A stretch of DNA of 64,000 nucleotides, from the NCBI GenBank assembly GCA_041660305.1, contig JBAZWO010000005.1:10247-74246 (forward strand). The letters run 5' to 3'. The DNA comes from Patescibacteria group bacterium (GTDB taxonomy: Bacteria > Patescibacteriota > Patescibacteriia > UBA9570). Below the pieces are notes generated by a model, which was not told where the DNA came from, searched no databases, and saw only the letters and a list, made by a program, of their open reading frames with translations. Within the stretch, counting starts at the first letter, position 1. Every line of letters starts with the position of its first letter. The position numbers and the translations under genes are program-made. Positions 4,802 to 27,569 of the stretch are shown here, in pieces.

Positions 4802-4987
4802 GTTGGCACATTTGAAATGAAGTAACTGAAGGAAGTCTTGTTCATTACAACTAAATTTGGCAGGAAGTAGTAATACTGTGGGTGTTTTGCACACGGAATA
4901 AAAACGCATGATATATCCATATCATCGTGCTGTTTCACTCCGGGTGCATTAACCTTTCCGCAAATCCGCGGAAATGCACCCACCAAC

Positions 4988-5022
4988 AGTCGTTCAGCTG
5001 TGGCAAGCTGACGACTTTTTTT
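4988..5022 (+). terminator. Intrinsic terminator inside the 5' leader (attenuator or riboswitch expression platform)
   Basis: AGTCGTTCAGCT-gtggca-AGCTGACGACT followed by T7. It ends 5 nt before the SD AAAGGAG (5027-5033) of the 5040 CDS. Confidence 0.6.
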
Positions 5023-5039
5023 CAAGAAAGGAGCTTATA

Positions 5040-6185
5040 ATGAAGCTCAACGCCAATTCGATCGTTCGTGGTTTTTTCATGTCGCTGACTTTCCTTGCTT
5101 TGGCGGGGAATGAATCATGTCCTGGAGCCGATTCCGACATGGATGGCTATCAGGACGACGGAAATGGCGGAACTGACTGCGATGACGAGAACGCCTCTGT
5201 CTACCCTGGCGCCGTCGAGCTGTGTGATGGGCTGGACAATGACTGTGATTGGCAGGTGGATGAGGGGGTGGAATTGATCACTTTATATCCCGATGCCGAT
5301 GGCGACGGGTTTGGTGACATGTACACCACATGGACAGAGGAAGCCTGTGCCGTCCTCACCGGCTATGTCGCGGATCACACTGACTGCGATGACGCGGATG
5401 CCACCAGCTATCCCGGCGCTCCGGAGCTATGTGACGTGCTGGACAATGACTGCGACGGTTGGACCGACGAGCCGTCGGACAATGATGGCGACGGGTATAC
5501 TGGTAGCTGTAGCGGAAGCGGAGAGGACTGCAATGATGCAGATGCAGCGGTCAATCCGGAAGCGATCGAAACCTGCAATGGGGTAGACGATAACTGTGAC
5601 GGCTGGGTTGACTATGGAGTGATCGGCTACATGGATGCTGATCATGACGGGTATGGGGACGGCGATCCTATCCCGTCCGCAGTGAATTGCGGAAAACCGT
5701 TTACAGGAACCGGAAATTTCGTTTTTGTCGCGGGCGACTGCGATGACGAGTATCCTCACAGCTATCCTGGTGCCGCCGAGTTCGCCGATGGCAAGGACAA
5801 CGACTGTGATGGAGCGGTGGACGAAGACATGGACGTCGCGGACAACGACAACGACGGGCTTTCCGAAGCCCAGGGCGACTGTGTCGATACCAACTCGGCT
5901 GTTAATCCTGACGCGCAGGAAAGTTGTTACACCTATTTGGTGGATGATGATTGCGATGGTCGGGTTGATGTTGTTGATGTCTACGAAGACTTCGACAGTG
6001 ATCGCTGGGGTGGCCGGCCGCGCGGGTCAGTGGAATGCGAATACAGGTACACCGTCATATACCCTCTGGCCTCGGGGATACCTGGTGGCGACTGCAACGA
6101 CAACAACGCGGCTATCAATCCCGCGGCCACCGAAGTTGCCGATGGCAAGGACAACGACTGCGACGGCCTGATTGACGAGGAGTGA
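5040..6185 (+). CDS. Secreted Cys/Asp-rich repeat protein (MopE-type putative metal-binding motif repeats)
   Basis: Signal peptide MKLNANSIVRGFFMSLTFLALAG. Six units of DCDD-x5-PGA-x-E-x-CDG-x-DNDCDG-x-x-DE alternate with DxDxDG loops. Strong SD. 62% G+C in line 5401-5460. ATG 5040 preferred over track start 4974. Confidence 0.75.
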   Translation: MKLNANSIVRGFFMSLTFLALAGNESCPGADSDMDGYQDDGNGGTDCDDENASVYPGAVELCDGLDNDCDWQVDEGVELITLYPDADGDGFGDMYTTWTEEACAVLTGYVADHTDCDDADATSYPGAPELCDVLDNDCDGWTDEPSDNDGDGYTGSCSGSGEDCNDADAAVNPEAIETCNGVDDNCDGWVDYGVIGYMDADHDGYGDGDPIPSAVNCGKPFTGTGNFVFVAGDCDDEYPHSYPGAAEFADGKDNDCDGAVDEDMDVADNDNDGLSEAQGDCVDTNSAVNPDAQESCYTYLVDDDCDGRVDVVDVYEDFDSDRWGGRPRGSVECEYRYTVIYPLASGIPGGDCNDNNAAINPAATEVADGKDNDCDGLIDEE

Positions 6186-12922: not shown

Positions 12923-14311
12923 TATTTTTGGTCCATTAAGTGTATCTTCTATTTGATAACCCTTACTTTCAATTTTTCTTCGTAACATATCCGCTACCTC
13001 CCATTGTTTGGCGTCCCGTGCAATTTCGCGTTCTTCTACTAGTTGAGTAATTTCCGGCGGCACATTAGCGGCGGCACTAATCGCTTCGTGATAATAACCT
13101 TCTAAATGTAAACCTAATATTTTATCCATGGCAAATAACGTAGCTAATTTTTTTCCGCTATCTAAATGTGAGTGCAACATATTCCACATAACAGCCAACG
13201 CTTTGGGAGTATCTAAATCGTTATTTACTGCCATGGTAAAGCGTTCCATGGTTTCCGTATCAATTTCGGTAGCTTCATCGTATTCATAATCCACAATCAT
13301 GGCGCGTAAATTATTTAATGCGTTACTAGCGCCTGTTAATGCTTCGAACGTAAAATTTAATTTAGCGCGGTAATGCGCACCTAAACAAAAATAGCGATAG
13401 GCGAGCGGGTCATAACCTTTTTCTTTTAACAGGCTTATCGTTAAAAAATTGCCCTTGGATTTTCCCATGCGTTCAGCGTTGGTAAGCAAAAATTCACCAT
13501 GTAACCAATAATTAACCGTTACATGATGTAACGCACCTTCATTTTGGGCAATTTCATTAGTATGGTGTACTGGAACATGATCAATTCCACCGCAGTGAAT
13601 ATCAAAATGCTCGCCTAAGTATTTAATACTCATGGCCGAACATTCAATGTGCCAGCCAGGAAAACCTGTTTCCCACGGTGATTCCCATTCCATCAGCCGT
13701 TTAGGCTGCCCTGAGCTTGTCGAAGGGCTAAATTTCCATAAGGCAAAATCGGTAGCGTGTTTTTTTTCGCCGGTCTCAATGCGAGCACCGGCTTGCAAAC
13801 ATTTAATATCAAGTTTTGCTAGTTTACCGTAATCAGATAATTTACTAGTATCAAAATAAATCCCGTCACTAGTTTTATACGTAAAACCGTTTTGTTCTAG
13901 TTTTTTTATTAAATCAATTTGTTCTTTAATATGATCGGTAGCTTTGCACCAAATAGTCGGCGGCTGAATATTCAAATCGTGCAAATCTTGTTGGAACGCT
14001 TCCGTATAAAATTTAGCAATATCCCAAACTGATTTTTTTTCACGTTGAGCGCCTTGTTCCATTTTATCTTCGCCGCTATCGGCATCGTCAGTTAAGTGGC
14101 CAACATCGGTAATGTTCATAACATGGTTAACTGTATAACCAGCTAGTTCCAAAGTGCGCTTTAAAACATCTTCAAATAAATATGTGCGCAAATTTCCAAT
14201 ATGAGCATAATGATAAACCGTTGGCCCGCAAGTATATAAACCCACTTTATGTTCGTGGAGCGGTTTAAATAATTCCTTCTTACGAGTTAGAGTGTTGAAG
14301 AGATATAACAT
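12836..14311 (-). CDS. cysS: Cysteine--tRNA ligase
   Basis: HIGN ([12 protein letters not shown]), KMSKS variant RMGKSKGN, and PGWHIECS. The last roughly 27 aa are repeat-derived. Contains a 21-nt in-frame palindromic insert. Confidence 0.95.
13708..13728. repeat. 21-nt palindromic insert inside cysS
   Basis: GCCCTgagcttgtcgaAGGGC encodes STSSGQP between the conserved DFALWK and WESPW blocks. Confidence 0.6.
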
Positions 14312-14333
14312 AGTAATATTTTACACTATTTCT

Positions 14334-14356
14334 CGTGGATAAACCAGTTATCCACA
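14334..14356. promoter_or_regulatory. Inverted pair of DnaA-box-like 9-mers upstream of cysS
   Basis: CGTGGATAA-accag-TTATCCACA. The second half is the perfect E. coli-type DnaA box. Confidence 0.3.
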
Positions 14357-14384
14357 GATCTAGCCAAAAATATGATAAATCTAT

Positions 14385-14412
14385 TTGACGTTTTTTTTGA
14401 GCCAGTTATAAT
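14385..14412 (+). promoter_or_regulatory. Sigma70-type promoter of an orphan small transcript
   Basis: TTGACG, 16 nt, TATAAT. Confidence 0.5.
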
Positions 14413-14418
14413 GGCCAC

Positions 14419-14604
14419 AAAGCAAAGTTATGAATCACTCCCAAGCTCACAATTTTAGCCTCGTATCCGTGTTAAAACACACCCCACGTTGTTTTGTTAT
14501 TAATTATTATACACAACGCGGATTGAGACTAAACCCTGCCCACTAGCCTAAGTTAACCTGAAAACCAAAACAAGTCCCAATCCGCCAAACTAGGCGGATT
14601 TTTT
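14419..14604 (+). ncRNA. Candidate small RNA of about 185 nt, unknown family
   Basis: Bounded by the promoter above and the intrinsic terminator AATCCGCC-aaacta-GGCGGATT plus T4-5 (14579-14604). Only a 38-codon SD-less ORF inside. Confidence 0.35.
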
Positions 14605-14657
14605 CTACCTCTCCCTCTGTCCCTCCCCTATTAGGGGAGGGATGAAGGGTGGGGTAG
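14605..14657. repeat. G+C-rich nested-hairpin element
   Basis: ctacctctccctctgtccctcccctattaggggagggatgaagggtggggtag. Confidence 0.8.
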
Positions 14658-14740
14658 AACACTCCTCAACTAGCTCTTTACAACTAGGTAACGTAAGCAC
14701 TCACGTTTTTAAGCTTCGTTTTAATGTATTAAAACATGAA

Positions 14741-14828
14741 GCCGGGAATGGAAAAGATATTATCAACCGGTAGAGACGCCCCGCCGGGGCGTCTCTACAA
14801 AAACTATAATATCTGTTCCATTCCCGGC
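14741..14828. repeat. 88-nt composite hairpin tipped by REP-like GTAG palindrome copy 3 (14770-14798)
   Basis: GCCGGGAATGGAA / TTCCATTCCCGGC (13 bp), GATATTAT / ATAATATC (8 bp), then GTAGAGACGCCCCG-C-CGGGGCGTCTCTAC. Confidence 0.85.
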
Positions 14829-14888
14829 TCGTGGTATGAGCTGAGACTCCCCAGGCCGCCTCTGCGGCCGCTGTTAGAGGTGGTTAGT

Positions 14889-15104
14889 ATGCCAGGATTT
14901 GAACGAAGTACAGAAGCAAGGGCACGGAAGCTAGAGGATGTTTTTCCATGGAGGTCCAGCCAGATAGAGGGACTCCTGGACAGCTGCTCATCCGACGAGC
15001 AGTTAGTACGTGCTCTGGACAAGATCCAGGAAGAAGAGGACAGCGGGGCTCAAGAAAAGGGTGGGAGGGATCTTCGTCGCAGAAGCGATGAAGCTAGGCT
15101 GTAA
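14889..15104 (+). CDS. Small acidic hypothetical protein S1 (71 aa), G+C-rich, SD-led
   Basis: SD GAGGTGG (14877-14883) 5 nt before the ATG. 57% G+C in line 14941-15000. No homology recognised. Track ORF start 14736 lies inside the hairpin and is rejected. Confidence 0.35.
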   Translation: MPGFERSTEARARKLEDVFPWRSSQIEGLLDSCSSDEQLVRALDKIQEEEDSGAQEKGGRDLRRRSDEARL

Positions 15105-15209
15105 TAGGCCAGGAGGATGTGGAGGCAGGCTCCATGTGTGATGAGTGGTCGCAAGACTGTTCAACGCTGGGTATCCCGTCTTCATCTTTTCGCTTACGTT
15201 ACCCACCTT

Positions 15210-15240
15210 CTTCTGTTGATAATACACTTATCAACAGAAG
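15210..15240. other. Perfect 13-bp hairpin made of two DnaA-box-like half sites
   Basis: CTTCTGTTGATAA-tacac-TTATCAACAGAAG. Confidence 0.7.
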
Positions 15241-15380
15241 CTCGGTGGAGCAATTTGACACTTTTTTTACAAGCAGTACAATACTTTCACATGCAACATA
15301 CCCGCGTAATCATTAGCAACATTATTATTAGCCACCTGGTGGTTAGGTAGTTGTTGCACGCGAAATCTTGCAGCACTCTA

Positions 15381-15407
15381 GCCACCTTACCGGTGGCGTT
15401 TTTGTTT
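15381..15407 (+). terminator. Intrinsic terminator
   Basis: GCCACC-ttacc-GGTGGC followed by GTTTTTGTTT. Confidence 0.5.
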
Positions 15408-15424
15408 ATACAGGCTCTTTACAA

Positions 15425-15568
15425 TTCACCACTCTCGCTGTGTGTTGATTTGACCCTTCCCCCTGACCCCCTTCCCTGCAAGGCAGGGGGAAAATTAATT
15501 AATTATTCCCTCCCTCTTGCAGGAGGGAGGGTTAGGGTGGAAGGTCACTACACAGCGAGAGTGGTGAA
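15425..15568. repeat. 144-nt composite hairpin: 19-bp perfect outer inverted repeat around a G+C-rich nested-hairpin element
   Basis: TTCACCACTCTCGCTGTGT (15425-15443) pairs with ACACAGCGAGAGTGGTGAA (15550-15568). The interior matches the CCTCCC/GGGAGG family. Confidence 0.85.
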
Positions 15569-15595
15569 AAAAACGTTATCTTTTAGGAGGTCTCT

Positions 15596-15793
15596 ATGGA
15601 CACGGATTTGCAAAAAAAAATTAACGAATTATCTGGTAATTTTTTTGAGCTGAGGACTATGTCCTCAGCGTGTCTTCATGGTATTTCGCATGACGATGCT
15701 CGGTATACACCGAGCTATCGTGAATGTGCTGTAGCGGTAAAGGAGCTTAGGCTACAACTCGAAGCGCAGTCGATGGCCGATTGCCCCCTATAA
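15596..15793 (+). CDS. Small hypothetical protein S2 (65 aa), SD-led
   Basis: AGGAGG (15585-15590) 5 nt before the ATG. Followed by an 8-bp-closed hairpin, CAGGCACG...CGTGCCTG (15818-15856). No homology recognised. Confidence 0.45.
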   Translation: MDTDLQKKINELSGNFFELRTMSSACLHGISHDDARYTPSYRECAVAVKELRLQLEAQSMADCPL

Positions 15794-16003
15794 GGAGTCC
15801 GCTCGTTTTTTCGGAGACAGGCACGGGTATGATTTCACAATCATTACTCGTGCCTGCTCTCCACCCTCTTCTATTTCTTAACCAATTAGGCTAAATATTA
15901 CGTTATCATACTTTTCAACTGGCTTCATTTTTAATAATAATATAAAAGGAAAAGTAAGTTTTTGTTCTTTTCAAAATTAGCATCGATCTTTACATTATAT
16001 TCT

Positions 16004-16071
16004 CAGAGATTCGGGGTAAGAAAATAAGTTTATCATGCTTGATTAATTTATTTTGCTACCCCTAATCTCTG
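16004..16071. other. 68-nt hairpin upstream of S3
   Basis: CAGAGATTCGGGGTA pairs with TACCCCTAATCTCTG: 15-bp arms with one mismatch and a 38-nt AT-rich loop. Confidence 0.75.
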
Positions 16072-16122
16072 GAATTCACTAGAGAAGGGGTGATAATCTC
16101 CCGCATAGATAGGAGGCTAGAT

Positions 16123-16326
16123 ATGTGGGGAGGAAAAGATTTTTTGAAAAGCATTTCGGAAGAGGAAAGGGCCGTGCGGTATAATCGCACGGCCACGACC
16201 TCGGCCACGACCTCGGCCACGACCTCGGCCACGACCTCGGCCACGACCTCGGCCACGACCTCGGCCACGACCTCGGCCAAATCCGTTCCGGTGATCCCGT
16301 TGAGGGATCGATACCCAGGGATTTAG
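16123..16326 (+). CDS. Small repeat protein S3 (67 aa) with (ATTS)x7 core
   Basis: AGGAGG (16111-16116) 6 nt before the ATG. MWGGKDFLKSISEEERAVRYNRT-(ATTS)7-AKSVPVIPLRDRYPGI. A strong terminator follows. ATG 16123 preferred over GTG 16090. Confidence 0.5.
   Translation: MWGGKDFLKSISEEERAVRYNRTATTSATTSATTSATTSATTSATTSATTSAKSVPVIPLRDRYPGI
16191..16279. repeat. Perfect tandem repeat, 12 bp x 7.4
   Basis: GGCCACGACCTC repeated seven times without any mismatch, plus GGCCA. Preceded by the 9-bp hairpin GGCCGTGCG-gtataat-CGCACGGCC (16170-16194). Confidence 0.95.
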
Positions 16327-16329
16327 TTA

Positions 16330-16377
16330 GAGGACGAGTAGTTCGCTTAACGCGATGCTACTCGTCCTCATTTTTTT
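16330..16377 (+). terminator. Strong intrinsic terminator
   Basis: GAGGACGAGTAG ... CTACTCGTCCTC (12 bp), then A and T7. Confidence 0.8.
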
Positions 16378-16466
16378 AAAAAAAATAAACAGCACCATTT
16401 TTGGCCAAATACAGGTAATTATGTTAATCTTATAAATAATCAATTATTAATAAAAGCATTAATTTT

Positions 16467-16507
16467 CCCCCTCTCCTTTGAGGAGAGGGGGCTAGGGGGT
16501 GAGGTAG
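16467..16507. repeat. G+C-rich nested-hairpin element
   Basis: ccccctctcctttgaggagagggggctagggggtgaggtag. It abuts the ATG at 16509. Confidence 0.8.
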
Positions 16508-16508
16508 T

Positions 16509-19133
16509 ATGACCACAACACAATCATTTAAAAAATTACAACAACAATTACAGCGCCAATCTTATTTAGTGGCGGAGCATACGCAGCGAGCTCGTACCAT
16601 GATTATTTTGCCAGGTTTTTCATTGGATCCTCAGGAAATTGCTAAGTTAAAAGGCGCAGAATATTACGAAGAGCGGCTGCTTTATTTTATTGGGTATTTA
16701 CGAGATCCACAAACTAAGATTATTTTTGTAAGTTCTCGGCAAATTGATCCGGTAATTTTAGATTATTATTTTGATTTGTTTAGCAGTAATAAATCAGAGC
16801 GTAACAGCATGAAACAACATTGGCAGCATGTGTATGTGGGCAACGCCAAAACGCACCGGACGTTAACCGAAAAAGTATTACGGTCTCAGCGCTTATGTAA
16901 CCAAATTTTGCAACATATTACCGATAAAAAACTAGCCGTGATTCGGTGTTTTAATGTATCAGCTTCAGAAAAAGCACTGGCCGTAAAATTAAATATTCCA
17001 CTATTTGCTTCCGATCCAGATTTATTGGTATTGGGTTCAAAATCTGGTAGCCGAGCCATTTTTAAACAAGCTAAATTAGCTATACCAGTCGGCCGTGAAA
17101 ATATCTATAATTTTAATCAATTAATTTTGGCTATACAAAATATTAAAAAACAATATGCCAAAACTGAACAAGTTGTTTTAAAATATAATTATAGTTTTTC
17201 TGGAGTAGGCAATGCCATGTTAACAGTAAAAAAATGGCCGCGCGGCCAAGTAGCCACCGAGCAGTATATTAAAAAACATTTACGACCAAATGATAACACT
17301 GAAACGATTACAAATTATTTGGCCAAGTTTTTTCAGCTCGGCGGTATTGTAGAAGCTTGGTTAATAGGCGATGAAGTATTATCGCCTAGTGTACAAGTGC
17401 TGGTGTTGCCAAATAAAACCGTGGAATTGGTTTCAACTCACGAGCAAATTTTAGACGCAGTTACTAAACAGTTATATTTAGGAGCGCGTTTTCCAGCGCG
17501 TGATATTGTACACGCTGAAATATTGCGCCAGGCTAAGTTAATTGGCCAGCAAATGGCCAAACAAGAGGTGATTGGGCCATTTGGTATAGATTTTATTGCG
17601 GTAGAACAACATAAGCGGTGGCGGGCATTTCCAGTGGAAATTAATTTACGCAAAGGCGGTACCACGCATCCATTTCGAACAGTGCAGTTATTAAGTAATG
17701 GTCGGCAAGATGCTACCGGGCAATTATGTGATAAGCAAAAACAGCCGATTTATTATTGTGCGTATGATAATATTGTGTCTAATCAGTATAAAAAATTAGA
17801 GCCAGAACAATTAATTAAGTTAGTGCAGCATAGTGGCTTAGCCTACGATCCAGCTACCAATGTGGGAGTAACCTTGCATTTATTGGGGCCGTTAAAAAAA
17901 TATGGTAAATTTGGCGCTATTTGTATTGCGCACACAGCCACATCGGCTGAGCAGTTATTTTTGTTATTAAAACGAGCGGTGGATCGTTATGTGTTAGATC
18001 AATCAGTTTTAGAACAACAAACCAAAGTGGCTACGCTTTCTAAAGTAAATACTAATCGGCTAATTAAAAATTTTATTGAACTAGCTAAAATCGCTAGTCC
18101 ATCCGGTGAAGAACGGGTAATGGCCGAACGGATGCGCGAGCTATTAGTCCAAGCTGGGGCTAAGGTGCGCATCGATCAACGCGAAAACGTGATTGCTAAA
18201 ATAGATGGCACGGGAGCTTTTAGTGAGGCGGATCCTATTTTAATTTCCGCGCATTTAGATACCATTCATCCGGGTGTAAACATTCAACCGGTAGTGCGGG
18301 GTGATGTAATTATGAGTGACGGTACCACTATTTTAGGTGCTGATGATAAAGTAGCGCTCGCGTATATTGTAGAATTATTAAGAATTTTACAGGAACAAAA
18401 AATTACGCATCGACCGATAGAAATAATTTGTTCAGTGTGTGAAGAGCAATTTGCCCAAGGGGTAAAAGAGGTTGATTTTTCAAAAATAAAGGCACCGGTA
18501 GCGATTGTGTTAGATGGTGCTAGAATTGGTGAAATTGATGTATCTAGCCCATATATTGCCGATATTGTGGTGGAGGTAATTGGCAAAGCAGCCCATTCTG
18601 GTGTAGAGCCAGAGCGTGGAATTAGCGCCATTCAAATAGCGGCGCTAGCCATAGCAAAAATGAAATTAGGCAAAGTAGATGCCAGAACTACAGCTAATAT
18701 TGGTATTATTACCGGTGGAAAAAATCGTAACGTAATACCACCACAGGTTATTTTGGAAGGAGAAGTACGTGGTTTTTTAAAACAGCGTTTAGAAGAACAG
18801 CTAGAACACATGGAAAAAATGTTGCGCGATGCGGCGGAACATTTTGGTGGATTGTTATCGTTGCAAAACAAGCTTATTTTAGAAGGGTATCAAATTTCAG
18901 AACACGATCCAGATTTGTTGCGTCTAATGATGCTCATGAAACAAGTGCATATTCCAGCTAGATTACGGCAAACTAATGGCGCTTCAGATGCTAATATTAT
19001 GATGACGCGAGGTATTAAAGCGTTTGACATTGGTATTGGTGTACATCATCCTCATACTATCGAAGAACATGTGTATATTGCGGACATGGTAAAAATGGTA
19101 GAGCTGTTATTATTGCTGGTGACAAAAAAATAA
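16509..19133 (+). CDS. Fusion protein: N-terminal ATP-grasp-type carboxylate-amine/peptide ligase and C-terminal M20 (PepT-like) metallopeptidase
   Basis: The N-terminal ~500 aa (ILPGFSLDPQEIAKLKGAEYYEERLLYFIGYLRDPQTKIIFVSSRQIDPVILDYY) resembles, from memory, PGM1-related ATP-grasp ligases. The C-terminal ~370 aa carries SAHLDTIHPG, GADDKVALAYIVELL and HHPHTIEEHV, typical of M20 peptidases. Confidence 0.6.
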   Translation: MTTTQSFKKLQQQLQRQSYLVAEHTQRARTMIILPGFSLDPQEIAKLKGAEYYEERLLYFIGYLRDPQTKIIFVSSRQIDPVILDYYFDLFSSNKSERNSMKQHWQHVYVGNAKTHRTLTEKVLRSQRLCNQILQHITDKKLAVIRCFNVSASEKALAVKLNIPLFASDPDLLVLGSKSGSRAIFKQAKLAIPVGRENIYNFNQLILAIQNIKKQYAKTEQVVLKYNYSFSGVGNAMLTVKKWPRGQVATEQYIKKHLRPNDNTETITNYLAKFFQLGGIVEAWLIGDEVLSPSVQVLVLPNKTVELVSTHEQILDAVTKQLYLGARFPARDIVHAEILRQAKLIGQQMAKQEVIGPFGIDFIAVEQHKRWRAFPVEINLRKGGTTHPFRTVQLLSNGRQDATGQLCDKQKQPIYYCAYDNIVSNQYKKLEPEQLIKLVQHSGLAYDPATNVGVTLHLLGPLKKYGKFGAICIAHTATSAEQLFLLLKRAVDRYVLDQSVLEQQTKVATLSKVNTNRLIKNFIELAKIASPSGEERVMAERMRELLVQAGAKVRIDQRENVIAKIDGTGAFSEADPILISAHLDTIHPGVNIQPVVRGDVIMSDGTTILGADDKVALAYIVELLRILQEQKITHRPIEIICSVCEEQFAQGVKEVDFSKIKAPVAIVLDGARIGEIDVSSPYIADIVVEVIGKAAHSGVEPERGISAIQIAALAIAKMKLGKVDARTTANIGIITGGKNRNVIPPQVILEGEVRGFLKQRLEEQLEHMEKMLRDAAEHFGGLLSLQNKLILEGYQISEHDPDLLRLMMLMKQVHIPARLRQTNGASDANIMMTRGIKAFDIGIGVHHPHTIEEHVYIADMVKMVELLLLLVTKK

Positions 19134-20366: not shown

Positions 20367-20795
20367 ATGCCAACAATTCAACAGTTAATTCGAAAACCAC
20401 GCCGGAAAGTTTCTACTAAATCTAAAGTTCCAGCATTACTAACCAATTTTAATGCTTTAAAGCGTCGGCGCAAAGCCATGGCTAAAGGTAACCCATTAAA
20501 GCGTGGTGTATGCACTAAGGTAACTACTACTACTCCAAAAAAACCAAACTCAGCGTTGCGGAAAATTGCTCGGGTTCGTTTATCCAATGGTATGGAAGTT
20601 ACCGCTTATATTCCCGGTGAAGGCCATAATTTACAAGAACACTCCATTGTATTAATTCGGGGTGGTAGAGTACATGATTTGCCTGGTGTGCGTTATCATA
20701 TTGTACGCGGTGTATACGATACCGCCGGAGTAGAGGGGCGCAAAGTCGGCCGTTCAGTATACGGAGTTAAAAAAGATAAATCAGCTAAGAAATAA
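20367..20795 (+). CDS. rpsL: 30S ribosomal protein S12
   Basis: [14 protein letters not shown] ... [18 protein letters not shown]. Confidence 0.97.
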
Positions 20796-20797
20796 TT

Positions 20798-21271
20798 ATG
20801 AGAGGAAAACAAGCTAAAAAGCGTTCTATAGCGCCAGATCCACAATACAATAGCACCGCCGTGGCTAAATTTATTAATTATATTATGCACGGTGGTAAAA
20901 AAACCGTTGCGCAAAAAGTAGTGTACGGGGCTTTTGCTGTAATTGAGAAAAAAAATGGTGACAAAGGCGAAAAAGGGGTAGATGTATTTGATAAAGCTAT
21001 TCGTAATGTATCTCCATTAGTGGAAGTAAAAGCTCGCCGCATTGGTGGCGCCAATTATCAAGTGCCAATTGAAGTAAGAGGTGAACGTCGATTTAATTTA
21101 GCCTCTCGTTGGATTATTGGCGCGGCGCGGTCTCGTAAAGGCAAACCAATGGCGGAAAAGTTAGCGCAGGAGTTAATGGATGCTGCTCAAGAACAAGGTG
21201 ATGCCATTAAAAAGAAGCAAGACGTGCACCGCATGGCCGAATCCAACCGTGCTTTTGCGCATTTCGCTTAA
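20798..21271 (+). CDS. rpsG: 30S ribosomal protein S7
   Basis: DPQYNSTAVAKFINYIMHGGKKTVAQKVVY ... ANYQVPIEVRGERR. Confidence 0.97.
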   Translation: MRGKQAKKRSIAPDPQYNSTAVAKFINYIMHGGKKTVAQKVVYGAFAVIEKKNGDKGEKGVDVFDKAIRNVSPLVEVKARRIGGANYQVPIEVRGERRFNLASRWIIGAARSRKGKPMAEKLAQELMDAAQEQGDAIKKKQDVHRMAESNRAFAHFA

Positions 21272-21278
21272 ATAACAA

Positions 21279-21373
21279 CTTACCTCACCCCCTAGCCCCC
21301 TCTCCTCAAAGGAGAGGGGGAATTTTAATTTCTCCCTTCTCCTGTTTAGGAGAAGGGTCGGGGATGAGGTAGG
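21279..21373. repeat. G+C-rich nested-hairpin element (double unit)
   Basis: cttacctcaccccctagccccctctcctcaaaggagaggggg ... ctcccttctcctgtttaggagaagggtcggggatgaggtagg. Confidence 0.85.
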
Positions 21374-21444
21374 CATTTTGTTATTATGAAAATTACATGA
21401 AAAGTAATTTGGTGAATATTTTTAATTATTGTAAAATATAATAT

Positions 21445-22749
21445 ATGACTACAACAACAAAACAAACCATTCTTACTATTATCATTAGTTTAGTATCCAG
21501 TATATTAGTTAGTGGATTGCTCATTGGCGGGTTAGTATCAGCAATGCTATTAAAGCCAGATTTAGTAGCTTCATTGTTGAATAAATCAGGTAAAACCAGT
21601 GTTACAGAACAAACTACAAATAACAATACAACAAATTTAAGTAATCTAGCTTCGCAACAAGAAGCCATAGTAGTAGATGTGGTAAAAAAAACCAATCCAG
21701 CGGTAGTATCGATTATTGCTACACAAGACGTGCCAAAATTTGAGCCTTTATTAGAGCGTAATTATCGCTCACCATTACAGGATTTATTTGGCATTGATCC
21801 ATTTTTTGGCCAACAATATGATACAAAAGATGATACACAAACACCAAATACAAATAACAATACTAATACAGAACAGCAAGAAATTGGTGGTGGTTCAGGG
21901 TTTATCGTATCAGCCGATGGCTATATTGTTACTAATAAACACGTAGTGGATATTGCTAGCGATGCTGATTTTACGGTGTATACCAGTGATAAACAAAAGT
22001 ATCCGGCCAAAGTGGTGGCACGTGATCCTAGTAATGATATTGCCGTATTAAAAATTGAAACTACTAATTTACCGTTTTTAACCTTCGGTAATTCGGAACA
22101 GTTACAGGTTGGGCAAAGTGTTATTGCGATTGGTAACCCGTTATTAGAATTTAACAATTCAGTATCCGTTGGAGTAATTTCTGGTTTAGCGCGTTCTATT
22201 GAAGCCGGTGATAGCATGGGACAGACTACCGAACAATTAGAAAACGTAATTCAAACGGATGCGGCTATTAATCAAGGTAATTCCGGTGGGCCGCTACTGA
22301 ATTTAAAAGGGGAGGTGATTGGTATGAATTCGGCGGTAGCTGGTTCGCAAACAGCACAAAATATTGGGTTTGCCTTACCAGCTAATTTAATCAGTTCAGT
22401 TGTAGATTCGGTAAAAACCACCGGCACTATCGAGCGACCATATTTAGGGGTGCGTTATCTAGAAATTAACGATAGTGTGCAAGAAAAAAATCAGCTCAGC
22501 GTTAATTATGGAGTATTAGTAACTAGTTCAGCTAATGATGAATTAGCAGTGATTCCTGGTTCACCGGCTGATAAAGCCGGTATCCAAACCAATGATATTA
22601 TTTTAGAAATAGATGGTAAAAAATTAGATGAAAATACATCATTATCCTCATATATTAGCCAAAAAAACATTAGTGATAAAGTTACATTAAAAATCTTACA
22701 CAAAGGTGAGGAGAAAGATATTGAGGTAACGCTGGAAAAACGCCCATAG
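21445..22749 (+). CDS. htrA: HtrA/DegP-family serine protease with PDZ domain
   Basis: N-terminal TM helix, catalytic TDAAINQGNSGGPLLNLKGEVIGMNSA, C-terminal PDZ (GSPADKAGIQTNDIILEIDG). Confidence 0.9.
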   Translation: MTTTTKQTILTIIISLVSSILVSGLLIGGLVSAMLLKPDLVASLLNKSGKTSVTEQTTNNNTTNLSNLASQQEAIVVDVVKKTNPAVVSIIATQDVPKFEPLLERNYRSPLQDLFGIDPFFGQQYDTKDDTQTPNTNNNTNTEQQEIGGGSGFIVSADGYIVTNKHVVDIASDADFTVYTSDKQKYPAKVVARDPSNDIAVLKIETTNLPFLTFGNSEQLQVGQSVIAIGNPLLEFNNSVSVGVISGLARSIEAGDSMGQTTEQLENVIQTDAAINQGNSGGPLLNLKGEVIGMNSAVAGSQTAQNIGFALPANLISSVVDSVKTTGTIERPYLGVRYLEINDSVQEKNQLSVNYGVLVTSSANDELAVIPGSPADKAGIQTNDIILEIDGKKLDENTSLSSYISQKNISDKVTLKILHKGEEKDIEVTLEKRP

Positions 22750-26657: not shown

Positions 26658-27569
26658 ATGGCATTAGGTAGAGGACTAGCATCATTAATCCCATCAAAAT
26701 CTGCTAAGCAACCAGCGGATCATTCGGCTGTGCAAATAACCAAACCGGATTCAGACGTAGTCGGTTTGGAGGTAAAACAAATCCCAGTAGCGCATATTAT
26801 TGCCAATCCTTATCAACCACGTAAGCAATTTTCGCACCATGAGCTAGAAGATTTAATCGGTTCTATTAAACAGCATGGTATTTTACAGCCGTTGTTGGTA
26901 GTGAACAGTGAGCAGGAAACTGGTAAGTATCAATTAATTGCTGGTGAACGACGTTGGCGCGCGGCGCGTATTGCCGGATTAACTACCGTGCCAGTAATAG
27001 TGCGAGCAGCTAAAGAGCTAGAGCAATTAGAGCTAGCTCTAATTGAAAATATTCAACGAGCTGAATTATCACCGATAGAAAAAGCTAAAGGTTACAAACA
27101 ATTAATGGATGAATTTAGTTTGAATCAAGAAGAGGGGGCGCGTAAATTAGGCATTTCGCGTTCTACGTTTGCTAATACAGCTCGGTTATTGGAATTACCA
27201 GAAGAAATTCAACAAGCATTAATAGACAAAACAATTACTGAGGGACACGCCAAAATATTATTAGGGTTACCTTCTGCGGTTGAACAAAGTAAACATTTTA
27301 AACATATTGTAGCCGAACGCTGGTCGGTTCGTACTCTGGAGTTAGCGGTTCATGGCAAAACCAAACATCAGCATGTAGTAAGACATGTAAATGTTGGTTT
27401 ACCGCCGCATGTGCATGCTTGGCAAAATGTTTTAGCGCTGGACTTAGCCACTAAAGTAAAAATTAAATCCAAAGCTACCGGTGGAGTAATTGAAATACAT
27501 TATTATTCTGCTGAAGAATTAGGGCAGTTGGTGAAGAAAATTACTAAATTTTCTGCCGCAGCAAACTAA
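26658..27569 (+). CDS. parB: Chromosome partitioning protein ParB/Spo0J
   Basis: ParB box LIAGERRWRAARIAG and HTH GARKLGISRSTFANTARLL. Confidence 0.93.
   Translation: MALGRGLASLIPSKSAKQPADHSAVQITKPDSDVVGLEVKQIPVAHIIANPYQPRKQFSHHELEDLIGSIKQHGILQPLLVVNSEQETGKYQLIAGERRWRAARIAGLTTVPVIVRAAKELEQLELALIENIQRAELSPIEKAKGYKQLMDEFSLNQEEGARKLGISRSTFANTARLLELPEEIQQALIDKTITEGHAKILLGLPSAVEQSKHFKHIVAERWSVRTLELAVHGKTKHQHVVRHVNVGLPPHVHAWQNVLALDLATKVKIKSKATGGVIEIHYYSAEELGQLVKKITKFSAAAN

Follow-up and report, generated by a model that had tools for sequence, protein, structure and literature searches.

What a perfectly repeated 12-nt unit within a small open reading frame (ORF) represents, a gene, a structured RNA or neutral DNA, is the question raised by a locus of a Patescibacteria group bacterium (assembly GCA_041660305.1). 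The DNA analysed is a stretch of 64,000 nt of contig JBAZWO010000005.1 (positions 10,247 to 74,246 of the forward strand), which is here called the window and to which the coordinates refer unless another contig is named. The ORF, designated W-B, had been noticed in a preliminary description made from the letters of the window only, in which it was presented as a Shine-Dalgarno (SD)-led Thr/Ser-rich peptide and, speculatively, as a precursor resembling those of peptides that are made by the ribosome and modified after translation (RiPPs). The best explanation of the locus is a lineage-specific translated micro-gene with an in-frame minisatellite that is prone to slippage or was generated by it, a reading that is held here tentatively and with somewhat less than even confidence. 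The locus would form a self-contained expression module in which a strong SD and the ATG of a 67-codon ORF follow a weak promoter region and an intrinsic terminator comes last, and W-B would most likely be translated into a small hydrophilic peptide rich in Thr, Ser and Ala. The features on which this reading depends are the following.

16123..16326, plus strand: small ORF W-B, 67 aa, ATG to TAG, reading MWGGKDFLKSISEEERAVRYNRT(ATTS)7AKSVPVIPLRDRYPGI
16190..16279, plus strand: perfect 12-nt tandem array (Tandem Repeats Finder, TRF: period 12, 7.5 copies, 100% matches, score 180)
16112..16117, plus strand: Shine-Dalgarno sequence AGGAGG, 6 nt before the W-B ATG
16092..16097, plus strand: possible -10 element GATAAT, read from the sequence, of a candidate independent transcript
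16330..16377, plus strand: intrinsic terminator with a 12-bp perfect stem (16330-16341/16358-16369), a 16-nt loop region and a T7 run
16509..19133, plus strand: fusion of a BesA-like ATP-grasp ligase with a PepT-like M20 peptidase (Pfam domains, PDB matches)

The tandem array and its reading frame

Exact search detected seven head-to-tail copies of GGCCACGACCTC at 16191-16274, and together with the TRF result this established the mismatch-free 12-bp x7 repeat of the preliminary description. No further copy of the unit was present in the 64-kb window when one mismatch was allowed, the chance expectation was 0.04, none of 100 shuffled sequences reached seven, and the next-best tandem array of the window had a TRF score of 61 compared to 180. 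CGGCCA, a 6-nt direct repeat, flanks the array. In the frame of W-B, which reads ...RYNRT(ATTS)7AKSVP... around the repeat core, the array encodes (ATTS)7 and the unit corresponds to four codons, so that a change in copy number keeps the frame. Near-identical head-to-tail repeats, a frame-preserving unit length and the position of the array inside the ORF 16123-16326 are the properties by which coding variable number tandem repeats (VNTRs) are recognized, and by analogy the array seems to behave like one of them. The core would be a young coding minisatellite in which the CGGCCA direct repeat and a stable hairpin at its upstream edge may favour replication slippage, and gain or loss of units would alter the length of the peptide while leaving its frame intact. 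Taken alone, the repeat is nothing unusual: a minisatellite, young and in-frame, within an orphan micro-ORF.

The AGGAGG motif, which had been described as ideally spaced, was confirmed 6 nt before the ATG and is moreover anomalous for an SD-poor genome. Upstream of it, the putative -35 element is weak (cTGgaA, 17-nt spacer), and the promoter candidate of W-B stayed under the threshold of the promoter scan. A distance of 3 nt separates the stop codon from the terminator, which, with 12 perfect pairs, a T7 run and a folding energy of -29.6 kcal/mol, is as strong as had been claimed for the plus strand. The codon log-odds score of the W-B frame was 0.25 and the best of the six frames; true genes scored 0.38±0.155 and shadow frames -0.14±0.13, with a 95th percentile of 0.079. 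The codons of the repeat are common in the genome and not rare ones. On the minus strand, the competing (AEVV)n ORF (16062-16280) begins with TTG, is not preceded by an SD and has a codon score of -0.20, and the earlier preference for the plus-strand reading was thus borne out by its better translation and termination signals.

Copy number of the array in other assemblies

In a contig from the European Nucleotide Archive (ENA; L001), the array has 2.5 copies instead of the 7.5 copies of the window, whereas the remaining sequence is 100% identical over 12.6 kb; the difference amounts to 60 nt and is in-frame. Two Logan contigs from other samples end exactly 30 nt into the array, which is the break expected for k=31 if the array is longer than k and which indicates at least 3.5 units there, with a minimum array length of 42 nt in these two samples. 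These differences suggest true copy-number variation of the array. Against this stands the finding that an array of 2.5 copies (30 nt) is the exact product of a de Bruijn collapse at k=21-29, and the 90-nt array is also compatible with a collapse at k=79-90; as both lengths match collapse lengths, copy-number variation is unproven. Of the VNTR behaviour that had been proposed, the difference between assemblies was therefore found, and its cause could be assembly collapse. The hairpin together with the first repeat unit gave 0 matches in a scan of JGI metagenomes.

The likeness to bacterial in-frame coding VNTRs, such as the loci used in multiple-locus VNTR analysis and the repeats of surface and contingency proteins, comprises the perfect head-to-tail units with a length that is a multiple of 3, the short flanking direct repeats, the low-complexity Thr/Ser/Ala composition and the apparent difference in copy number. 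Unlike these, W-B is a 67-aa orphan without signal peptide or anchor in the genome of an uncultured Patescibacteria bacterium, and its variation is so far an apparent one between assemblies. If the copy number of W-B truly varies, the array would be a ready strain-typing marker for the lineage.

SD-led small ORFs upstream of the fusion gene

W-B is one of two small ORFs in the gap that precedes the fusion gene.

14312..16508, plus strand: hairpin-dense, G+C-elevated gap of 2.2 kb between cysS and the fusion gene
15596..15793, plus strand: small ORF W-A, 65 aa, with AGGAGG 5 nt before the ATG

This gap, the only large one in the otherwise densely coding 64 kb, contains W-A, W-B, candidate small RNA (sRNA) genes and palindromic elements. 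Its G+C content is 0.45 compared to 0.38 for the window, and 8 of the 25 perfect G+C-containing hairpins are located in it, although it makes up 3.4% of the window. AGGAGG occurs ten times in the 64 kb and in no case before an ORF of at least 100 aa, GGAGG precedes at most one ORF of this size, and W-A and W-B are the only intergenic ORFs of the 64 kb with AGGAGG 5-6 nt before the ATG. The starts of the long genes are mostly AT-rich upstream and leaderless-looking. Across the window (for example at 26658, 33109, 21445, 25863 and, on the minus strand, 24420), most gene starts are without any SD, and many show a TATAAT-like hexamer 6-10 nt before the ATG. From this pattern, leaderless or SD-independent initiation would seem to be widespread in this Patescibacteria genome.

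Full-length homologues of the fusion protein with 45-61% identity were found in uncultured bacteria, several of them labelled Patescibacteria, and nine relative loci were retrieved and examined; among species-representative genomes, one relative only was present. The gene order fusion, Fer2, M50 peptidase, rpsL is recurrent, and in more distant relatives the fusion gene is located beside aromatic amino-acid and aminotransferase genes. All relative loci have a G+C-elevated gap of 0.4-3.4 kb upstream of the fusion gene, filled by SD-led ATG ORFs that are 50-132 aa long and share the strand of the fusion gene. For a census of this class in the upstream gaps of the 9 loci, an SD-like motif, an ATG 4-9 nt downstream of it and an ORF of at least 50 codons were demanded. 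On the plus strand 14 such ORFs were observed against 0.15 expected from dinucleotide shuffles, and on the minus strand there was 1. This excess looks like the strongest evidence both for translation of the class and for its positional link to the fusion gene. W-B would accordingly be counted among SD-led orphan ORFs that are always upstream of, and co-oriented with, the BesA-like/PepT fusion gene in this Patescibacteria clade.

The class is not one family. W-A, which was called by the Logan gene caller, is significantly similar only to a 71-aa ORF that precedes the orthologous fusion gene of the relative L005 (Smith-Waterman score 66 compared to 21.9±4.2 for shuffles), the fusion enzyme of which is 61% identical to that of the window; no further members of the W-A family were found in 5.8 billion and 1.84 billion proteins. 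The remaining small ORFs are unrelated beyond internal paralogue pairs in L006, L010 and L014, share no leader or C-terminal motif, and, as far as searched (W-A, W-B and eight relatives' small ORFs), have no Pfam or PHROG matches. One ORF of L010 (start 1953) contains an in-frame, degenerate 27-nt Thr/Pro-rich repeat. In L006 (2830-3990), two paralogous small ORFs with the common motif E(L/F)CR(K/R)Y(H/N)G are each followed by a conserved element of ~90 nt (..TTCACGTTGCCCACCTCTCC..), so that a module in tandem duplication precedes the fusion gene.

The co-occurrence with homologues of 16509-19133 that had been proposed as a check was thus observed for SD-led small ORFs, which precede the fusion gene in all nine relatives; it was not observed for ATTS-repeat ORFs, since W-B is without homologue and not in the three closest relatives, which have no tandem repeat at the site. 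Comparisons of W-B with W-A and with the ORFs of L005 and L009 gave no significant protein or DNA similarity. Descent of W-B from W-A or from the L005 ORF, considered because of a shared 'RY' motif at a hairpin, was rejected (Smith-Waterman p 0.39 and 0.03, and p>0.1 in the comparisons at the DNA level). A dispersed miniature inverted-repeat transposable element or repetitive extragenic palindromic element was likewise discarded, parts of W-B not being repeated elsewhere in the window, and so was an origin from phage or defence systems, given the lack of Pfam and PHROG matches and of the repeat in viral contigs. The sequence at 15806-15835, just downstream of W-A, matches L005 directly before its fusion gene, and the W-B module of ~580 nt therefore looks like a lineage-specific insertion.

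RNA structure and evidence against a coding gene

Besides the terminator, three hairpins are predicted at the locus.

16170..16194, plus strand: 9-bp G+C hairpin GGCCGTGCG-gtataat-CGCACGGCC, 9 perfect pairs, 8 of them G-C
16100..16128, plus strand: hairpin with the SD in the apical loop and the AUG in the 3' stem (predicted folds)
16279..16324, plus strand: composite hairpin at the 3' end of the ORF, with outer (AAAUCC/GGGAUUU) and inner (GAUCCC/GGGAUC) stems, ending at the stop codon

The 9-bp hairpin had been described as abutting the first repeat unit; it is present, and its 3' arm in fact overlaps that unit by 4 nt. It is unique in the window and outside both families of dispersed palindromes found there. 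The hairpin around the SD was seen in both folds of 16095-16380 (minimum free energy and centroid) and again when 16100-16357 was folded.

Several observations weigh against translation of W-B. The repeat is free of stop codons in all six frames, so that the open frame alone is weak evidence of coding, and the weight of the coding case is carried by the arrangement of SD, ATG and terminator. Neither W-B nor W-A was called on the ENA contig, and from the annotation of the NCBI metagenome-assembled genome both appear to be missing: there the protein accessions run consecutively from cysS through a 122-aa hypothetical protein to the downstream enzyme, which suggests that neither small ORF is annotated. 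The Logan gene caller reported a 5' fragment of W-B at the ends of the contigs L015 and L016. W-B is not present in the protein collection, and the search for homologues returned as its sole match an unrelated low-complexity protein (E=4.3), which precludes an evolutionary test of coding. The AlphaFold model of W-B, predicted from the single sequence, is one long helix and uninformative for a repeat. Moreover, the non-repeat sequence of W-B consists almost entirely of strong hairpins, with the AUG in a stem, and the fold z-score of -6.45 for 16095-16380 is also compatible with a structured RNA.

Weighing of non-coding and neutral explanations

The least improbable of the alternatives, and still an unlikely one, is a structured non-coding sRNA of ~250-300 nt ending at the terminator, in which the ORF and the SD-like motif would be incidental or have a function in the RNA and the repeat would serve as a platform with multiple binding sites or as a spacer, unstructured and variable. 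The z-score given above is joined by one of -7.78 for 15995-16380, 0 shuffles being as good, and four strong hairpins take up almost everything outside the repeat; practically no pairing is predicted within the repeat, which is counted against the sRNA. The 2.2-kb island is rich in RNA-like and hairpin elements (an sRNA-like element at 15255-15405 and another segment with a z-score of -8.0), G+C-rich islands are typical of structured RNAs in AT-rich genomes, and the ORF was not called in the NCBI and ENA annotations. However, the search of 14200-16600 against Rfam 15 gave only sub-threshold hairpin and terminator look-alikes, at the gathering score and at E<=5, no Rfam family was matched in the upstream gaps of the relatives either, and due to the lack of a homologue no covariation supports the fold. 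The strand-specific excess of SD-led ATG ORFs (14 compared to 1) is hard to explain without translation, and the ATTS frame resembles genes in its codon usage. Antitoxin RNAs of type III toxin-antitoxin systems (ToxI-like) likewise combine tandem repeats, a terminator and a downstream gene; they differ in that the unit here is 12 nt and not about 34-45 nt, that the downstream gene does not encode a ToxN/AbiQ endoribonuclease, and that the array lies within an SD-led ORF.

A neutral microsatellite in non-functional intergenic DNA, that is, slippage in a decaying or junk region with coincidental signals, is rated as distinctly unlikely and below the sRNA. The orphan, lineage-specific insertion of ~580 nt relative to L005, a repeat that is open in all six frames and a perfect unit identity, which indicates very recent expansion, all agree with it, but an ideally spaced AGGAGG, an ATG and a terminator after the stop are jointly improbable. 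In the shuffled gap, 0.01 combinations of SD, ATG and an ORF of at least 50 codons were expected and 2 were observed, and the compactness of Patescibacteria genomes, with this gap as the sole large one in 64 kb, is also counted against a neutral origin.

The fusion gene and its possible relation to W-B

The fusion gene starts 182 nt downstream of W-B, in agreement with the spacing of about 180 nt reported before. Its product has IQCH-like ATP-grasp, PGM1_C (33.8 bits) and M20 peptidase domains in Pfam and is named M20/M25/M40 family metallo-hydrolase (Patescibacteria group bacterium) by NCBI, while relatives are named 'PGM1-related'. Residues 28-479 align over the full length with BesA, the L-propargylglycine--L-glutamate ligase (PDB 8YI6, E 9e-33), and residues 513-871 match peptidase T (3GB0, E 1e-59). 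Despite the PGM1_C score, a phmmer search of the ligase half against PDB sequences matched BesA only, and no PGM1 chain was matched at E<=10. In the reaction of BesA, the gamma-carboxylate of glutamate is ligated to a free amino acid (bioRxiv 10.1101/2025.10.10.681649). The BesA-like and peptidase T halves thus point, on the basis of sequence similarity, to small-molecule chemistry with amino acids or short peptides as probable substrates, and since the characterised relatives act on such compounds, the proposal of a RiPP-like precursor modified by the fusion enzyme is weakened. Esterification of the peptide, which had also been envisaged, is disfavoured by a repeat that contains neither Asp nor Glu for ester or amide cross-links.

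A cis-regulatory leader ORF is slightly less probable than neutral DNA. In this model, a ribosome at the W-B stop codon would occlude the 5' arm of the terminator and permit read-through into the ligase/peptidase gene, the expression of which would be coupled to translation speed or tRNA charging. The architecture is that of attenuators (thrL, pheL, pyrL): a short ORF behind a strong SD, in which Thr, Ser and Ala codons form runs (14, 8 and 8 codons, arranged in a row pattern), a terminator that directly follows the stop and, 182 nt further on, the gene of an amino-acid or peptide enzyme. In relatives the fusion gene is found among amino-acid genes (PDT, PDH, chorismate mutase, aminotransferases), a terminator also occurs 110-150 nt before it in L004 and L009, the closest relatives, and in L009 pairing is conceivable between the 3' arm of a hairpin at an ORF end and the terminator's 5' arm. 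What separates W-B from attenuators is the alternative helix: a classical antiterminator was looked for and not found in the window, where the best competing duplex has -9.3 kcal/mol compared to -29.6 kcal/mol for the terminator, and folds cut before the 3' arm of the terminator give only a 4+3-bp helix. The logic of W-B would need occlusion of the terminator by the ribosome instead. With 67 codons, W-B is 3-4 times longer than typical leader ORFs, other members of the class (50-132 aa) are without codon runs, and the 140-nt AT-rich stretch and the palindromic element after the terminator could hold a promoter belonging to the fusion gene itself. Moreover, we know of no link of the enzyme to Thr or Ser.

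The lowest rating, very unlikely, is given to W-B as a peptide that the fusion enzyme uses as a ribosomal substrate or partner, be it a RiPP-like precursor or a LysW-like carrier. The system of LysW, LysX and LysK combines a small protein, an ATP-grasp ligase and an M20 hydrolase, and is compared here together with the gamma-glutamyl 'handle' logic of BesA; in the window, too, an ATP-grasp ligase and an M20 hydrolase (in fused form) are encoded beside small proteins, and amino-acid biosynthesis and aminotransferase genes are nearby in the relatives, as in the LysW and BesA systems. Small, hypervariable, co-oriented ORFs with an SD stand before the fusion gene in all nine relatives, sometimes as paralogue pairs. 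They are not conserved, however, and carry neither a zinc ribbon nor an acidic C-terminal tail of the EDWGE type; W-B ends in ...DRYPGI, has no Cys motif and no C-terminal Glu, and the ligase is not of the LysX/RimK type. The Pfam detection of PGM1_C speaks for a peptide substrate, as PGM1 ligates a ribosomal peptide (PMC8939145); the BesA-like ligase half without a PGM1 match and a peptidase half that is a tripeptidase speak against it. With the precursors of graspetides (plesiocin) and of pheganomycin (PGM2/PGM1), W-B has in common a non-repeated N-terminal part followed by a repeated core, a strong ribosome binding site and a hairpin or terminator before the ATP-grasp gene. In contrast to graspetides, the ATP-grasp enzyme is BesA-like, not MdnB/C-like and not demonstrably PGM1-like either, the (ATTS)7 core has no acidic acceptor residues, and orthologous enzymes are accompanied neither by a conserved leader nor by an orthologue of W-B, which is not in the closest relatives; in contrast to PGM2, the repeat contains no basic or other cleavage motif of a multi-core precursor. 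The fusion gene is furthermore embedded in conserved housekeeping synteny (Fer2, M50 peptidase, rpsL, rpsG). The intervening terminator had been used as an argument against co-transcription; RiPP precursor genes often precede leaky terminators, and the terminator alone does not exclude a link. There is no positive evidence for W-B as a substrate of the fusion enzyme.

Further elements of the gap and of the window

Two further regions of the gap are candidate sRNA genes. At 15255-15405 (449-600 in L009), a promoter TTGACA-16-TACAAT is followed by a transcript of ~115 nt and a terminator GCCACC..GGTGGC with a T run; the region is ~90% identical between the window and L009, though the neighbouring proteins are 61% identical, has a fold z-score of -3.5 and gave no Rfam match. 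At 14385-14607, a promoter-like TTGACG-16-TATAAT (11/12 matches) is followed ~170 nt later by a terminator (14579-14600) with a T run; there is no ORF between the two, and the only resemblance in Rfam is a weak Phe_leader look-alike (E 0.17). An inverted repeat with 24-nt arms at 15425-15568 (about 624-745 in L009) encloses C-rich and G-rich palindromes; it is kept in L005 and L009, lies directly upstream of an SD-led ORF in all three loci and shows a compensatory change in its arms (CACCAC/GTGGTG in the window, CATCAC/GTGATG in L009). The 122-aa 'hypothetical protein' of NCBI (14736-15104) has a codon score of -0.27, the least gene-like tested, and begins on a 90-nt near-perfect hairpin; 14730-15245 has a fold z-score of -8.0. 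The region is probably not a protein gene; it may correspond to a structured RNA or to palindromic elements in a cluster.

Two families of dispersed palindromes, CCCCCTCTCC(T)..(A)GGAGAGGGGG and GTAGAGACGC..GCGTCTCTAC, were found, most copies of which are located at gene ends.

11783, 12856, 14634, 15522, 16483, 21312, 46592, 48439; and 964, 4270, 14770, 54305, 63706: dispersed palindrome sites

G-rich palindrome arms stand directly before the starts 10204, 12817 (minus strand) and 16509 and may supply the SD-like GGTGAGG. Short-read contigs break at the dispersed palindromes. Elsewhere in the window, a G+C-rich gene (up to 0.61) of 403 aa at 4974-6185 encodes six putative metal-binding repeats of the MopE type (PF11617, E 9e-57); it is among the few long ORFs with an AAGGAG SD and may therefore be horizontally acquired. 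At 20367-22749, an HtrA/DegP-like protease gene, and not fusA, comes after rpsL and rpsG, and the S12 protein of the window has an insertion near its N-terminus.

Implications for initiation and small proteins in the clade

The cassette of micro-ORFs upstream of the fusion gene is more interesting than the repeat, which is itself of modest interest. An SD-poor genome keeps perfect SDs on a few small, G+C-rich orphan ORFs, which stand before one conserved ligase/peptidase gene throughout a clade of uncultured Patescibacteria, and standard annotation mostly misses such SD-led small ORFs. That the clade maintains an SD-dependent, fast-evolving micro-ORF cassette which is functionally coupled to the fusion enzyme, W-B with its length-variable (ATTS)n core being one member and the products being ribosomal substrates, carriers or translational sensors, is improbable. 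If it were true, the cassette would represent either a peptide-ligase system of a new kind or a novel way to control amino-acid or peptide metabolism through translation, in organisms that otherwise initiate without an SD. If the SD-led ORFs are translated, they would enlarge the small proteome that is hidden in the candidate phyla radiation and would provide a handle on the coexistence of SD-dependent and SD-independent initiation.

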